Made by a program: the position numbers and the translations under genes. From Nitrospirota bacterium (GTDB taxonomy: Bacteria; Nitrospirota; Thermodesulfovibrionia; Thermodesulfovibrionales; UBA9159), in NCBI GenBank assembly GCA_963699545.1, contig CAVOUE010000012.1:97140-161139 (forward strand): a stretch of DNA of 64,000 bases, read 5' to 3'. Shown one piece after another: positions 28,501 to 39,374 of the stretch. Numbering within the stretch: the first letter of the stretch is position 1; every line of letters begins with the position of its first letter. Below the pieces are notes generated by a model. That model was given only the letters and a program-made list of their open reading frames with translations. It made no database searches and had not been told where the DNA came from.

Positions 28501-28719
28501 TTACAGTGTTCATGAACCTCCGTATCCAATTGTCACCTTGTCTCCTTCCACGATGACCGGAACCCTTGCAGCGCCTTTCGTGTATTCAAGCATCTCCTTC
28601 AGTTTTGCCCTGTCCGACAAGACCTCGATATAGACTGCGGTATCGCCAAAGGCCGACCTGGCCGCTTGACTGAAGGGTCATCCCTTCTTGCCAAAGATTT
28701 TTATCACTGTTTCCGTCAT
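28501..28719 (-). CDS. UXX-star-type glutaredoxin-like selenoprotein with two Sec, 72 aa
   Basis: FGKKG-UGA(28678-80)-PFS...RVPVIVEGDKVTIGYGGS-UGA(28510-12)-TL-TAA; hairpins 28651-28663 and 28478-28500. Confidence 0.88.
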
Positions 28720-28770: not shown

Positions 28771-29307
28771 TTACTCTATAAGGAGAAGTGCGAAGTAGTT
28801 CCATTTGCCGTATGTCTCTTTTTTCGTGTCGACCTCAAAGCCGTTGGCCCGCGCTGTTTTGAAGACATCTATGCCGCAGGCTTCCATAAGGGGCCTGATC
28901 CTGAGTTTTTTCTGGTCACCAGTCTGAGACTCACCCTGAGTCTCCGCCTCACCAGAGGGTCACGTTGCCCCTTCGGGCCCTGAAGAGAGAGCAGTCATCG
29001 CGAATGCCTTGTAAAAGCCCATCTGGTATGCCTCGCCTTCAAGCCTCACGGCGGTCTCGGTGAGGGTCTTCCCCTTGGAGCCGTTCATGAGGATCGCTTT
29101 GCTGTATTCCTTCATCATCTTTTTTGTGCTGTCCGCATCGGGAGCACAGGGGGGATGATAGGCGTCCTTACCATGGAATGCACAGCCGTAAACGCACTTC
29201 CACCTCACCCACTCCTCTACGACAACAGCACTGGTATTTATGACCCTGGCTTTCTCGGCCCCAAGCTCAAGGGACCTTTTTAAGAGCTGGTCTGTTTTAT
29301 CTTCCAT
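28771..29307 (-). CDS. DUF2284-like metal-binding selenoprotein, 178 aa
   Basis: WVRWKCVYGC...PPCAP...GPEGAT-UGA(28960-62)...RPLMEACGIDVFKTARANG; the family motif lies after the UGA; hairpin 28926-28944. Confidence 0.85.
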
Positions 29308-29335
29308 TCCATCACCTCCTTCACGTGTGGTGGCT

Positions 29336-30271
29336 TCATTTATGTTTAAGCGTATACTCTCTGCCGTCCCGGTTACGACCTCGGCAGGATGTCCGTCCTC
29401 CTGAAAAATACGGACACCGTTCTTCCCTGCACCCGTGGGGATGCTTGACGCCATGATTGCAAATTATTGATTGGCTTAGGGGCAGCACGAGTCCGAGGCT
29501 TTCCCCAAGGTAATTCACCGCCGCATCAAGGGATGTCCTGACATACGCCTTACAGCAGCTCGGGCCTGTGAGATCGGTTATCGCCCTCGCAACCCTTGTC
29601 ACCGCCTCCATGGTGATCCTCTGCTCCTCATCTTTACCGCATTTCGAACCCGTGAGGACTGCAAAACAGGCCCCCATGGCCGGGGCGATGCCGCAGACGC
29701 CGCTCAGGCCGCAATAGCCGCCGTGGGCCTGCTTCCTTGTGCGTTTAAAGACCTCCTTGATCTCTTCATCCGTCATGCCCTTCACGCCTTCGTTCTTTAT
29801 CGCGGCCATAAGTGCCCCGCCGGCAATGTACGCATGCTGGCAGCCGAGCATCGGAAGTCCCGGGAAACTCATGGCAATTTCGGCTATCTCGAAGGGATTG
29901 CTTGATGACGTCGAAAATATAGTATCTTCTATGATCCTCATCGAATCCCTGTTGTGACAGAGGTCGCAGATATAGTGGCCGCTTAGGCAACTTATATGGC
30001 CGTGCTCAAGCTTGCCACAGTATATGCACTTCAGCTCCTCTGCCTTGTCGTGATACGTCAGGGGCGTGCCGCAGACCATACAGTGCTCGGTTGCTTTAGT
30101 CTGAACTTCTACGACAGGTTTATCCCCCTGGTTCCCGCTTTCGCAAAGCCCTTCTATGGTCCCGGTTAACGACTTTGAAGCGCTGTTTTGATGCCCACCA
30201 GCATCATCGCCCGGCTCTCAATCTCAGCTGCCATCTTCTCTCAATTCTTTCCTCTCTTTTTCCTCTGCCAT
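29336..30271 (-). CDS. DUF5714-like Cys-rich protein with an N-terminal UxU motif, 311 aa
   Basis: AAGGAGG SD; MAEEKERKELREDGS-UGA-D-UGA-EPG, in frame with CMVCG, CIYCG, GHYICDLCH, GGYCG and GPSCCK; hairpin 30189-30206. Confidence 0.82.
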
Positions 30272-30283
30272 TGTTTCCTCCTT

Positions 30284-30577
30284 TCATCGGAACAAGAGGG
30301 TGTATCCCACCAGCCCCAGGCTCAAGGCAGTCGTCACGTAGAGCATTCTCTTTCCCCACGGGTCGGCAGATCCCCTCTTCCGGAAAAATGTCCTGTGGTA
30401 CGCCATTCCCAAAAAAGCAAGGGTTACGAGCACGAAAATCCATCGGTAGCTCACCATCCAGACGCCTAGGGTCAGGCTTCCCAGGCCCAAACTGGCCAGG
30501 ATCAGGGGAAGCTGTCAGGCGAAAAAAGCTACCGCTGAAGAAATGACAGCACCGCTCTTAAAAAATGACGCCTTCAT
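30284..30577 (-). CDS. MerT-like membrane transporter selenoprotein, 97 aa
   Basis: MKASFFKSGAVISSAVAFFA-UGA(30515-17)-QLPLILASLGLG...YRWIF, three TM segments; the UGA sits at the MerT CC site; hairpin 30484-30497. Confidence 0.8.
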
Positions 30578-30618: not shown

Positions 30619-31122
30619 TTATGTGCGCTTTCGGGTTTCTTTTCTCGGTCCCCACGCCTGCATCTTTATCTTTCCCTCCCGAGCGAGTTTGCCAAGGATA
30701 AAGAGGACGCTCTCACGATTCAGCTTAAAGTATGAAGCTACCTCGTCAGGGTCCACTTTTTCTCTGTCGGTGAGAAATACGACTATCTCATTCTCGATCT
30801 CTCTCATCCAGTCATTAAAGAGTCCCCGCAGCTCCGGGGTCGAGTACGTGGCCAGCTCATAGGAATGGCTCACCGCCGATATGACCTCCTTGCTCATCTC
30901 CACCGGATTCACCCCTGAATCCGAACACTCCTTAATTCATTCATCCACCAGCGACGCCAATTGTCGCCCCTTTTTCCTGCCGGCAGCCACGCTCCGGAGC
31001 ATTTCTTCCTTATCAGCTTCGTTCAGGTCCTTTAAGAGCGTTGTGACAAGGCTGCTCAGGACCTCTCTCTTTTCGGTGGAACTCATACCGGTCATGACCT
31101 TTTCGATCGTGCCCTTTTCCAA
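30619..31122 (-). CDS. Unknown selenoprotein (UxxxC) with a wHTH-like C-terminus, about 167 aa
   Basis: ORFs 30937..31131 and 30619..30912 are in frame, separated only by UGA 30937-39; strong hairpin 30903-30924; TTG start after GGAGG. Confidence 0.78.
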
Positions 31123-31127
31123 TGAAA

Positions 31128-31562
31128 TCACCTCCTCTTTTCAGCATTACGATGAATGTTGTCCTTCGGTTTCCTCATTATAGGAGTCCGTTTGATCTGC
31201 CTCTCCACTTTCCACATTTTTTTGACGACAGGTTCGGGCTTTCCGTTTTTATTCGGTTTTTTATCATTTAATTGAGAAAGATCAGCGAGAATGTCCAGAA
31301 GCGAAGGGTCAGACAGACTGTAATAGATAAAAGGACCCTTCCTTTCCGTCCGCACGATGTCGGCCTCGCGCATGATCCTCAGGTGAAAAGAGACCAGGGT
31401 TTGAGAGAGGCCGGTTGTCCTCACAAGCTCCGTTACCGACCGGGATTCCTTACCGACGGACATAACCATGTCCAAACGGTTCCTATCCCCAAGAGCCTTG
31501 ATGAAGCGGGCAAGTGTATCCATGTCGTTGATATTCCAGCCGTTTACCATATCAAAATCCAT
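31128..31562 (-). CDS. ArsR/SmtB-family regulator heading the selenoprotein operon
   Basis: KALGDRNRL, SQTLVSFHL and RKGPFIYYSL. Confidence 0.9.
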   Translation of the reverse strand: MDFDMVNGWNINDMDTLARFIKALGDRNRLDMVMSVGKESRSVTELVRTTGLSQTLVSFHLRIMREADIVRTERKGPFIYYSLSDPSLLDILADLSQLNDKKPNKNGKPEPVVKKMWKVERQIKRTPIMRKPKDNIHRNAEKRR

Positions 31563-31565
31563 TCA

Positions 31566-31612
31566 TATGAGTAGATACTCATAGTGTATAAGAAGAAATT
31601 CATGATTGTCAA
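31566..31612 (-). promoter_or_regulatory. Promoter with an ArsR-type inverted-repeat operator
   Basis: TTGACA-18nt-TACACT, then the perfect palindrome TATGAGTA-TC-TACTCATA (31566-31583). Confidence 0.75.
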
Positions 31613-36511: not shown

Positions 36512-36685
36512 TTATACCTCCGTTAATGCACGCATAATGATTCTTCCCTATATGAGACGTACAAATTGTTTAAACGTAACCCTGGCTGTCTCAGCAGCGG
36601 CGTTTACTTTTCTCTCCCGGTATCTCAGGCCCTTCGATGCAAGAGGAAGTCCCGTAATTTCTGCCTGAGACATCAATAGCCTTTT

Positions 36686-37873
36686 TCATGGTAACCCGCT
36701 GAGGCCGTGTTTCATCTTCCAGAGAAAGTACCTTTCAAATACGATCTTCCCCCATCTAAACCAGATGCCTTCTTTAAACACCGATTTCTGCCTTGGCGGG
36801 AGCACCGGACTTGCCTTCATGTACGCAGCGGTATTGCCCATATCCATAAGACAAAGGACGTCAATGGGGATATCTTCAGGGGGCCTGCTTCCCGTACTAT
36901 CTGCAACAATTGCCGATGAAGCGGTTTTTGCCATCCTTACGGTCATATACCCTGTCTTAGGAACGCCCGTGGGAACGGGCGTCTGTTCAGGAGGGGCGAT
37001 CGCTACCGCAACCCCAACAGCAAAGATATTCTTATATTTTACATGCCGGTATTTCCCATCGACAGGAATGAACCCTCTTGGGTTTCCGAGGTGTGCAACC
37101 GCGGGAACCCCTTTCATGGCAGGGGCAAACATCCCAAGCTTGAAGGGGATCTTTGTGCCGTCCTTCAACCGCACCTCATCAGGCACTATCTCTTCGACAG
37201 CAGTGTTGACGATGATTTTGATATCCCGCCTTGCGAACTCATCCTCCATCATCCGTTTGGAATCCCTTAATCCACCGATACCGAAATGGCCTATGTATGG
37301 CTCCGAGGTTACAAAGACCATGGGCACCTTATGGCGGATTTTCCTTCTGCGGAGTTCCGTGTCTATTTCGAAGGCATACTCATAGGGCGGACCGAAACAG
37401 CTCACTCCCTGGACAGAGCCGGTAACAAGGGGACCGGGATTCTCAAGGAACGTATTCCATGCCTTATTCGCCCTCTCCGCCTGGTCAAGGGTGAAGATGC
37501 ACTCAGTGTTCCCCTTCTCCGGCCCGAGGCCAGGAACTTCTTCAAAGGCAAGATAAGGTCCGGTGGCTATAACGAGATAGTCATAAGGGATATCCCTTGT
37601 TTCCGTTAAGACCTTAGACGCTTCGGCATCCACCCCTTTCGCTTTTTCGTGGACAAACGTTATGCCTTTCCTTTCCAGGATCGGCTTTAACGGGAGGGTA
37701 ATATCTCCGGCCTTCCTGCTCCCCATGGCAACCCACGGCAGGGAAGGGACAAAAACAAATTTATCATCGTCGCAAACGACGGTCACCTCCGCTTTTTTCC
37801 CGAGGAGTCTTTTCAGTTCAAACGCTGCAGTGAGTCCCCCGAAAGAACCACCCAAGACAACAATCCTCGCCAT
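36686..37873 (-). CDS. sqr: Sulfide:quinone oxidoreductase-like flavoprotein
   Basis: GGSFGG Rossmann fold, ECIFT, SCFGPPYE, GVPKTGYM and LCLMDMG. Confidence 0.85.
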   Translation of the reverse strand: MARIVVLGGSFGGLTAAFELKRLLGKKAEVTVVCDDDKFVFVPSLPWVAMGSRKAGDITLPLKPILERKGITFVHEKAKGVDAEASKVLTETRDIPYDYLVIATGPYLAFEEVPGLGPEKGNTECIFTLDQAERANKAWNTFLENPGPLVTGSVQGVSCFGPPYEYAFEIDTELRRRKIRHKVPMVFVTSEPYIGHFGIGGLRDSKRMMEDEFARRDIKIIVNTAVEEIVPDEVRLKDGTKIPFKLGMFAPAMKGVPAVAHLGNPRGFIPVDGKYRHVKYKNIFAVGVAVAIAPPEQTPVPTGVPKTGYMTVRMAKTASSAIVADSTGSRPPEDIPIDVLCLMDMGNTAAYMKASPVLPPRQKSVFKEGIWFRWGKIVFERYFLWKMKHGLSGLP

Positions 37874-38270: not shown

Positions 38271-38624
38271 TCAAAAAATCATCGTTGTCCTGGCTTCCTG
38301 CATCAATTCCGCTATCTCTGCGGCGCCCGCCAGTTTCACCCCATCCACAATATCCGCAGACTCAAGGTGTTGTTCCCTCACTGATGCCTTGTCTGCATAC
38401 ACCCCCACACCCATGTCCATGCAGTCCTTCAAAGCGCCTTCAAGATTCGTGAAGCCCGTACCTGTGTCGTCCTGCCCTTTCTTGGCAAGGAGAACGCCGC
38501 TGTCCACCAGGATCAAATCAACGGCAAGTTCATCTGCCGCGCCGCCCATGGCATGCCTGACTGCCTCCGCTGCGTTTATGTCACCGTAGGGCGCCTTTCG
38601 CAAGATCATCGCAATTTTCCCCAT
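38271..38624 (-). CDS. DsrE/DsrF-family protein (DsrF/TusC-like, no active Cys)
   Basis: LRKAPYG, DSGVLLA and VYADKASV. Confidence 0.82.
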   Translation of the reverse strand: MGKIAMILRKAPYGDINAAEAVRHAMGGAADELAVDLILVDSGVLLAKKGQDDTGTGFTNLEGALKDCMDMGVGVYADKASVREQHLESADIVDGVKLAGAAEIAELMQEARTTMIF

Positions 38625-38635
38625 GTTCTTCTCCT

Positions 38636-38992
38636 CTACGCTCCGATATTCAGCCAGATATCCGTTTCTCCCATGGTTTTAAACAGACCCTTGAGAGAGC
38701 CCACCTCTGCACCATCCAGATAGTCATCCTTCGCCGCACGGCGAAAGTTCAGGCATCCGCCTCAAAGGTAGACCTTCAATCCCTTCTGTATGAGTCTGGA
38801 GAATTCCTCTTCTGCGTTTGTAATCCCCTTTGCCTTCTGCTTTTTGAGGAAGCAGTACACCCCGTCCGCAGACGCGATGAGATTCACTGTATGCCCTTTG
38901 TCCAATGCAGCTTCAGCGGTCTTTACCGCTGTCAGAGTGTTTTCATAGGAATAGGGTGACGTAGACAGCAATAAGGTAAATGTTTTGGCCAT
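38636..38992 (-). CDS. DsrE/TusD-like selenoprotein (UxxC), 118 aa
   Basis: STSPYS...ADGV...KVYL-UGA(38762-64)-GGCLNFR...GSLKGL; SECIS-like hairpin 38728-38747. Confidence 0.88.
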
Positions 38993-39374
38993 GTTCCCTC
39001 CTTTCTTCTTCGGGATGAAACGGTTGATACCCTAATGTTCTCCTTTCTCCCGGATAGATGCCTTTTTTTGTTACGGGACAGCAGGCCGGGGCCGGCAATG
39101 TTCCCTGATAATTTTTTCGGATTATCTCAAGGATATCAGGGATTATGGGATCAACGAGGAAATAGCATTTGAGTCGTCCGTCAACGTACGAATCAATAAG
39201 GCCACGTGTTCTAAGCAGTGACAGATGCTGGGATACGTTGGGCTGGCTTATCTCAAGGAACTCCTCAAGATCGCTCACGCATTTGACACCCTTGAGAAGT
39301 TCTTCAAGTATCTTTATCCTGACAGGGTGGGCGATCGTTCTCAAAAGCTCAATCTTCTCTCCCATAAAAGGCAC
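38943..39374 (-). CDS. ArsR/SmtB-family regulator with a C-terminal CC motif (true stop may be near 39031)
   Basis: IAHPVRIKIL, KCVSDL, SQPNVSQHL and PACCP. Confidence 0.88.
   Translation of the reverse strand: MPFMGEKIELLRTIAHPVRIKILEELLKGVKCVSDLEEFLEISQPNVSQHLSLLRTRGLIDSYVDGRLKCYFLVDPIIPDILEIIRKNYQGTLPAPACCPVTKKGIYPGERRTLGYQPFHPEEERREHGQNIYLIAVYVTLFL

Follow-up and report, generated by a model that had tools for sequence, protein, structure and literature searches.

A gene split in two by its annotation in a Nitrospirota bacterium probably encodes a divergent TsoA-family selenoprotein with a winged-helix C-terminus

Introduction

The review PMC13188914 describes TsoA as the LULAxC selenoprotein, with one selenocysteine (Sec, U), TsoB as a rhodanese/DsbD fusion-like selenoprotein with the motif UxxxxU, and TsoC as a selenoprotein with the motif NEPxGxxU, all credited to Haft & Tolstoy 2025. 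The selenoprotein families TsoX, TsoY and MbdU are credited there to the same authors, and further unrelated selenoprotein genes are said to adjoin the 'three selenoprotein operon'. Here we analyzed a stretch of 64,000 nucleotides (the window) from the assembled genome of a Nitrospirota bacterium (GCA_963699545.1, contig CAVOUE010000012.1, forward-strand positions 97,140 to 161,139), in which a gene on the minus strand at 30619-31122, here called tsoA-like, is interrupted by an in-frame TGA. It is highly probable that this is one gene, that Sec is inserted at its UGA under the direction of a selenocysteine insertion sequence (SECIS), and that its product is a homologue of TsoA on a separate branch. 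The function of the product is graded apart from these statements.

Results

Gene structure and conservation of the UGA codon

Under translation table 11, the region is called as two open reading frames (ORFs), 30937..31131 (64 aa) and 30619..30912 (97 aa). The original prediction had joined them in frame through the motif LVDE-U-IKEC and proposed that they form a single unrecognised selenoprotein. We found both halves and the motif on the minus strand, a strand that the prediction had not named, and, with TGA translated as U, the segment 30619-31131 reads without interruption as ...LASLVDE-U-IKECSDSGVNPVEMSKE..., with a single 167-codon frame at 30619-31122. The likely start, TTG at 31122, lies 5 nt past the TGA that ends the ArsR gene upstream and matches the Met of the relatives in the alignment. 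The proposal is supported by the conservation of the TGA, by a covarying SECIS-like hairpin, by the presence of selA, selB and tRNA-Sec, and by in-frame coding past the TGA.

The codon at the Sec column was compared in 62 loci, comprising the window, five other Nitrospirota genomes, one metagenome-assembled genome (MAG) named 'Nitrospirae bacterium' and 55 metagenome contigs; the clade is found in Nitrospirota genomes and in metagenomes. The search within the phylum covered 401 genomes and gave matches in 13, with full-length close relatives (60-65% identity), each with TGA inside, in five genomes other than that of the window. The scan of genome contigs gave a single related locus, L028, which is 85% identical and comes from the 'MAG: Nitrospirae bacterium', and the patterns used to retrieve the 55 metagenome loci were peptides of the clade itself. 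Of the 62 loci, 61 have TGA at this column (60 of the 61 relatives), one has TAA, and none has a Cys codon. Past the TGA the codons vary at the third position (ATH; RAR, CAR or other; GAR; TGY), which indicates that the frame is translated beyond it, and the stretch I-K-E-C-S/T-D-S-G, which separates the TGA from the earliest start open to the second ORF, is kept with the same kind of variation.

We also looked for the full-length Cys homologues that the original prediction had proposed as a check, and none turned up. Cys forms of this clade were absent from 5.8 billion proteins (scored candidates of 93-298 aa sharing short words with the query), from 1.84 billion representatives and from the 61 related DNA loci. 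With a Cys form in 0 of 61 relatives, the branch is apparently obligately Sec-containing, as far as its sequences tell. The arrangement that the prediction had named as speaking against itself, in which the two halves stand apart with TAA or TAG at the Sec position, was seen in one of the 61 relatives only, a locus (L090) with a broken N-terminal half.

The genome assembly (13 contigs, 3.04 Mb, 87% complete) carries selA (607 bits) adjoining selB (302 bits), both above their cut-offs, as well as a tRNA-Sec(tca), all of them on contig C3. Open frames of at least 900 nt (n = 1438) end in TGA in 750 cases, in TAA in 389 and in TAG in 299. TGA is therefore the commonest stop and is not recoded genome-wide, and we rejected such recoding as a source of the open frame.

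The SECIS-like hairpin

According to the original prediction, the TGA is followed by a 9-bp hairpin with a GGGG loop that buries the GTG needed as a start by the second ORF. The hairpin is present, with eight Watson-Crick pairs and a closing U-G, 12-13 nt downstream of the TGA, and the GTG (30910-30912) does lie within it, formed by the final loop base and two bases of the 3' arm. Folding of the 66 nt from the UGA gave -20.4 kcal/mol (z = -3.80), a value that none of 200 shuffles equalled, whereas for a 66-nt segment placed differently z was -2.27, a value equalled or bettered by 6 of 200 shuffles.

Among 53 distinct 66-nt sequences from these loci, the 8-pair helix is 91.7% paired, compared to 11-48% of cells for registers shifted by 1-3 columns, and a 7-bp core of the hairpin is conserved. 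The clearest single case is the pair at columns 27-38, which is U-A in 37 sequences, C-G in 14, U-G in 2 and unpaired in none; here a synonymous change in Asp (GAT to GAC) is compensated by a change from Asn to Ser (AAT to AGT), and the U-G intermediates exist. The covariation score of 0.125 compares with 0.073 in shuffles and was reached by none of 500. Within the stem, all 53 sequences have G at the third codon positions, the codons being NCG (51) or ATG (2), plus the Val GTG. All four bases occur at the four-fold degenerate positions of the loop's Gly codon (GGN) and of codons beyond the stem (Pro CCN and, later, Val GTN). The apical loop reads G-G-N-G, with G24, G25 and G27 invariant.

In the bacterial SECIS consensus, one of the first bases of the apical loop is a G, and the distance between UGA and loop is 16-37 nt (bSECISearch); the loop starts here 21 nt after the UGA, within that range. 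As in SelB-dependent SECIS elements, for example the one in E. coli fdhF, the hairpin sits within the coding sequence right after the UGA and its apical loop opens with G-G, although the loop is often GGUG here and GGUC in fdhF. Unlike in SelB-dependent bacterial elements, a bulged U was not identified in this hairpin. A search of Rfam matched no SECIS model and returned six chance-level matches only.

Relationship to TsoA

The original prediction could not assign a family. A family can in fact be named, since the NCBIfam model NF045695 ('LULAXC motif selenoprotein TsoA') matches the protein with an E value of 2.7e-28 over positions 1-144 of its 144, and since Sec and Cys align with those of P0089. 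This protein, the one bona fide TsoA sequence used for comparison, was among the 242 matches at E <= 0.001 in an HMMER scan of 1.84 billion representatives. In BLASTP, with U entered as C in the query (C65 of P0001), the two proteins share 32% identity over 126 aa, with U62 on the W (= TGA) of ...MVHL-W-LAEC... and C66 on the Cys; Sec and Cys are therefore homologous to those of TsoA. The likeness further comprises full-length homology, a G-V-[DN]-P-x-x-M stretch after the Cys, a TPEL..LF..W helix and a C-terminal winged helix; the gene directly upstream is of ArsR type and TsoR-like.

The two differ in the motif itself. L-U-L-A-x-C is not matched, as the window has E-U-I-K-E-C and the clade [E/H/Y/R]-U-[I/L]-x-x-C; there is no Leu before U and no Ala in the motif, which retains nothing of the TsoA pattern except an aliphatic residue behind U and the spacing U-x-x-x-C. 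The downstream partners also differ, being here genes for a MerT-like protein, MbdU and a UXX-star selenoprotein. For TsoB (NF045694) nothing in the genome scored over the cut-off (best 80.4 versus 805 bits, away from the locus), and TsoC (NF045708) had no match in the genome, which is weak evidence given that this search was silent in control genomes too; both negatives come from the 87% complete assembly. The NF045695 cut-off was reached in 0 of the 401 Nitrospirota genomes searched. Because of the score below that cut-off, the different motif and the TsoB and TsoC genes not found, the clade is, by sequence comparison, a TsoA homologue on a separate branch, a divergent sister form and not an equivalog.

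More distant full-length relatives (22-34% identity, 160-208 aa, e.g., P0050, P0055 and P0076) are without Sec and rich in Met, with MSxEEKKEMM repeats. They share with the window protein its length, the N-terminal helical part, the TPE..LF..W helix and the winged helix, the last with sub-threshold matches to MarR, FeoC and HTH_24. They lack U-x-x-x-C and carry the Met-rich repeats in place of that region. Their P-M-x-M-x-K stretch aligns with P-V-E-M-S-K here, where the Cys of their PMxMCK corresponds to the Ser of E-M-S-K-E. One gene for such a relative (L024:1153-1779) has two OsmC-family genes before it and genes for a multi-pass membrane protein and a SHOCT-domain protein after it.

A further distant relative lies on the minus strand of locus L019 (G202:C12) at about 1513-1776, with 33% identity in its C-terminal part. 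It has an in-frame TGA in ER-U-RKMMAG, no Cys four residues after the TGA, and a different hairpin, GGGACU-GGCCG-AGUCCC, downstream of it. On these sequence features, L019 may represent a third Sec-containing branch.

Predicted fold

AlphaFold2, run with a 69-sequence alignment, returned an all-helical model with a mean predicted local distance difference test score (pLDDT) of 74 and a predicted template modelling score of 0.41. Residues 100-155 are modelled at pLDDT > 90, with a long helix at 96-117 and helices at 125-132 and 136-148, and U62 and C66 lie one turn apart in a helix at 53-67. In VIA-align (48,161 chains), residues ~99-159 matched many winged-helix domains with Z values of 6.5-8.7 and root-mean-square deviations (rmsd) mostly of 0.8-2 A. 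These Z values are in a commonly met range and support the fold class and nothing beyond it. Foldseek against the PDB gave nothing at E <= 0.001; its top weak matches were all winged-helix domains (E 0.04-0.5, ~50 residues, rmsd often 1.1-1.7 A). DSSP assigns no strands to the wing. In Pfam, winged-helix matches were sub-threshold only, namely DUF2582 (E 0.012) and FeoC (PF09012; E 0.011, 16.3 bits versus a gathering threshold of 21 bits), and some relatives bear a precomputed PF09012 label. We are confident from the model and the structural matches that the C-terminal half comprises a long helix and a winged helix-turn-helix, and the winged helix that the original prediction had suspected at the C-terminus was thereby borne out. 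The N-terminal half (residues 1-95), searched as part of the full model, had no match in Foldseek or VIA-align.

The predicted architecture resembles that of ArsR/SmtB and other winged-helix metal sensors in having a winged helix-turn-helix in the C-terminal 55-60 residues (the match to the ArsR structure 6j05 in Foldseek had E 0.19 and an rmsd of 1.4 A over 53 columns) and a soft-ligand pair, here Se/S, near a domain of DNA-binding type. Unlike the ArsR/SmtB regulators, the protein shows no significant sequence match to a regulator family, its helix-turn-helix matches in Pfam all being sub-threshold, and its ligand pair lies in a separate N-terminal helical domain.

Operon context

The genes from 31562 down to 28501 are all on the minus strand and close together, and the features of the locus are collected in Table 1.

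Table 1. Features of the tsoA-like gene and of the genes around it, with positions as in the window
Feature	Position	Strand	Details
TsoA-like selenoprotein coding sequence	30619..31122	-	167 codons; TTG start, TAA stop 30619-30621; U = residue 62, C = residue 66
In-frame UGA, predicted Sec codon	30937..30939	-	TGA in 61/62 loci including the window; aligned to the TGA (shown as W) of P0089
Cys codon 4 residues past Sec (U-x-x-x-C)	30925..30927	-	TGY in 53/53 distinct sequences; aligned to the LULAxC Cys of P0089
SECIS-like hairpin	30903..30924	-	5' arm UCGGAUUCA 30916-30924; loop GGGG 30912-30915; 3' arm UGAAUCCGG 30903-30911
Shine-Dalgarno GGAGG	31131..31135	-	8 nt ahead of the TTG start, within the 3' end of the upstream gene; read from the sequence
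TsoR-like ArsR/SmtB repressor gene	31128..31562	-	0 Cys; stop 5 nt before the TsoA-like start
Promoter-like TTGACA-18-TACACT	31583-31612	-	Consensus scan
Perfect 8-2-8 palindrome TATGAGTA-GA-TACTCATA	31566-31583	-	Repeat scan; overlaps the second promoter-like hexamer, just upstream of the tsoR-like start
MerT-like membrane protein gene	30284..30577	-	In-frame TGA 30515-30517, AFFA-U-QLP
MbdU-like gene (DUF5714 + DUF2284)	28771..30142	-	In-frame TGA 28960-28962; two frames here
UXX-star family 1 glutaredoxin-like selenoprotein gene	28501..28719	-	NF041114 85.2 bits (cut-off 72)

The palindrome upstream of the tsoR-like gene is a candidate operator. The product of that gene scored 89.1 bits against NF045707 ('ArsR/SmtB-type metalloregulator TsoR'; cut-off 115) and 72.8 bits against the ArsR/SmtB model NF033788 (cut-off 55). 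Of the 61 related loci, 44 have an ArsR match adjoining the tsoA-like gene, many of the others being short contigs, and the aligned parts of most of these ArsR-type neighbours are also without Cys. By tblastn, the MbdU halves lie downstream of the tsoA-like gene in all six close relatives, and three of the six also have a MerT-like gene in the corresponding place; an upstream ArsR gene was detected in the three relatives with contigs long enough to show it.

The tsoA-like, MerT-like, MbdU and UXX-star genes together hold five in-frame TGAs in four proteins. The MerT-like protein had sub-threshold matches to its family models (NF033560, 33.5 bits; PF02411, 17.8 bits), and its TGA falls at the place where MerT carries a Cys pair. 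The GC-rich stem-loop after this TGA folds no better than shuffles (z -0.46). The UXX-star gene has TGAs at 28678-28680 (G-U-PFS) and at 28510-28512 (C-terminal GGS-U-T-L-stop). The MbdU model NF045648 matches twice, with profile positions 21-272 at 29387-30142 (407.8 bits) and 275-468 at 28774-29355 (328.9 bits, one TGA).

The starts of the two MbdU-like halves lie 772 nt apart, with a frameshift within 29355-29387 near a T run, and the gene is in one frame in 6 of 6 close relatives; the frameshift is either an assembly error in the MAG or a real split. In the DUF2284 part, the TGA (GAT-U-PSG) is followed ~18 nt downstream by an 8-bp hairpin, GAGACUCA-GGG-UGAGUCUC, which looks like a second SECIS-like element. 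Elsewhere in the window, the minus strand carries a flavoprotein gene and, nearby, genes for a TusC/DsrF-like protein and for another member of the ArsR family (36548-37873, 38271-38624 and 38943-39374). The flavoprotein weakly matches 'type III sulfide quinone reductase, selenoprotein subtype' (106.9 bits, cut-off 525), and its table 11 ORF stops at a TGA whose reading as U adds 46 codons.

Public annotation

Of 43 database matches, 41 are C-terminal halves of 93-111 aa, those with names being called 'hypothetical protein', and the other two are full-length and show W in place of Sec. The N-terminal part also exists as separate entries, with lengths of 60-67 aa. The database translations of P0003, P0009 and P0089 print W at this column, most likely as a result of the sources' gene calling having read TGA as Trp. 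Full-length selenoproteins are therefore present in databases disguised as Trp proteins.

Discussion

The analysis itself establishes how the gene is built, that its UGA is conserved and that its hairpin covaries, together with the homology, the gene order and the class of fold. Two other accounts of the TGA can be set against this. If it were a true stop, the locus would hold two separate genes, one for a helical peptide of 61-64 aa and one for an independently started winged-helix protein of 97 aa. Gene callers do yield these halves, L090 has TAA at the Sec column, and selD was not found. However, TGA stands at this column in 60 of 61 relatives even though TAA and TAG end 688 of the 1438 long open frames of the genome, TsoA has its Sec at the homologous position, and the stretch between the TGA and the first start is kept as a coding sequence would be. 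The N-terminal half of L090, moreover, is itself broken by another stop. An independent start of the second ORF was rejected, as its GTG lies inside the conserved hairpin and no conserved Shine-Dalgarno sequence precedes the internal GTG or ATG in the alignment of relatives; the AAGGAG of the window, a possible ribosome-binding site, is replaced in relatives by AAAGAA, CAGGAA and similar sequences. We therefore regard two separate genes as very improbable. Still less credit can be given to a reading of TGA as Trp or another standard residue under an alternative code, or to an error in the MAG assembly, for which the chance appears negligible. The printed W in three database proteins would fit the Trp reading, but TGA is the commonest terminator of this genome, and a dedicated hairpin is present together with tRNA-Sec, selA and selB. 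An assembly error was rejected as the source of the TGA, since the same TGA occurs in 60 independent related loci.

Several observations nevertheless weigh against a single TsoA-type selenoprotein gene with the role discussed below. The selD gene was not found, the best match to TIGR00476 (66.9 bits, cut-off 125) being ThiL at C9:185706-186467, although this is not decisive because the assembly is only 87% complete. Among the relatives, L090 (2531-2596) alone carries TAA in the Sec column. Its hairpin is intact, and the metagenome from which it was taken also holds intact copies (L063 and L068); L090 is probably a decaying copy because a second stop disrupts its N-terminal half. The metagenome scan was skewed to close relatives, though not to any codon at the Sec column. 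The window protein scores 99.1 bits against NF045695, far under the cut-off of 170 bits, so that functional equivalence with TsoA is not established; the clade as a whole scores 79-100 bits, P0089 201.7 and the Sec-free Met-rich relatives 41-72. The pLDDT is 50-62 around U62 and C66, which makes their i/i+4 helical geometry tentative. No ArsR gene was found in the 3.2 kb of sequence around the Met-rich relative in L024, and the family is therefore not always paired with ArsR. Finally, insertion of Sec in vivo is deduced from comparative data, and any ligand of the protein, like its binding to metal, DNA or TsoR, is hypothetical.

With these points in mind, a mechanism can be proposed for the tsoA-like gene as a selenoprotein gene. 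SelB would bind the in-gene hairpin and deliver Sec-tRNA at the UGA. The resulting U-x3-C selenol/thiol pair could form either a two-coordinate soft metal(loid) site or a Se-S redox switch, with the winged helix relaying the signal from Sec62/Cys66. ArsR/SmtB repressors usually sense via their own Cys or His sites, and here a Cys-free repressor is translationally coupled to a protein with a selenol-thiol pair and a winged helix. This suggests that the TsoA-like protein may be a Sec/Cys sensor or co-regulator, as the original prediction had guessed, acting as the partner of the repressor translated just before it; the two would together control the operon of tsoR-like, tsoA-like, merT-like, mbdU and UXX-star genes. 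We offer this role as a tentative one. A specific form of it, a two-protein switch in which the TsoR-like repressor, unable by itself to sense soft metal(loid)s or redox state, relies on U62-x3-C66 of its coupled partner and the partner's winged helix docks on the repressor or the operator, is speculative and, in our estimate, rather unlikely. No Sec-containing transcription regulator is known to us, although no literature search was aimed at one.

Alternatively, the protein could be a selenoprotein with no regulatory role, a cytoplasmic carrier or chaperone whose Sec/Cys pair accepts its cargo, either a soft metal(loid) or a species of sulfur or selenium, from the MerT-like membrane selenoprotein and passes it to MbdU, with the winged helix serving protein-protein contact as is thought for small FeoC-type proteins. 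The gene keeps its place immediately ahead of the MerT-like gene (three of six relatives) and MbdU (six of six), every partner has Sec or Cys at likely ligand sites, and among the Pfam matches of the C-terminus FeoC ranks first. The Sec-free relatives with their MSxEEKKEMM repeats and PMxMCK point the same way, Met-rich composition being typical of soft-metal binding sites. The FeoC match is under the Pfam cut-off, however, and the tight coupling to an ArsR-type repressor that lacks Cys suits a regulatory role equally. A carrier function is the main alternative, and we hold to it with the same reserve as to the sensor role.

Whichever role the TsoA-like selenoprotein has, the locus is not a new kind of system, since the TsoA, MbdU and UXX-star families and multi-selenoprotein operons have been in print since 2023-2025. 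What appears to be new here is a second branch of the TsoA family, by all indications from its sequences an obligately Sec-containing one, which has been missed by the curated model and by gene calls. The clean covariation of the SECIS-like hairpin, the fixed association with MbdU and not with TsoB/TsoC, and the Cys-free partner repressor also appear to be new; for all of these, overlap with Haft & Tolstoy 2025 is possible.

The NCBI curated TsoA model would miss the clade because of its scores below the cut-off, and the gene stands in public records as two 'hypothetical proteins', a systematic annotation error that is corrected here. The linkage with MbdU and a MerT-like protein may help to explain the role of TsoA-type proteins, and a concrete hypothesis of a sensor that works through selenium can be drawn from the pairing with a Cys-free ArsR repressor. 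If the two-protein switch were true, it would constitute a Sec-dependent transcriptional regulator governing an operon of four selenoproteins.

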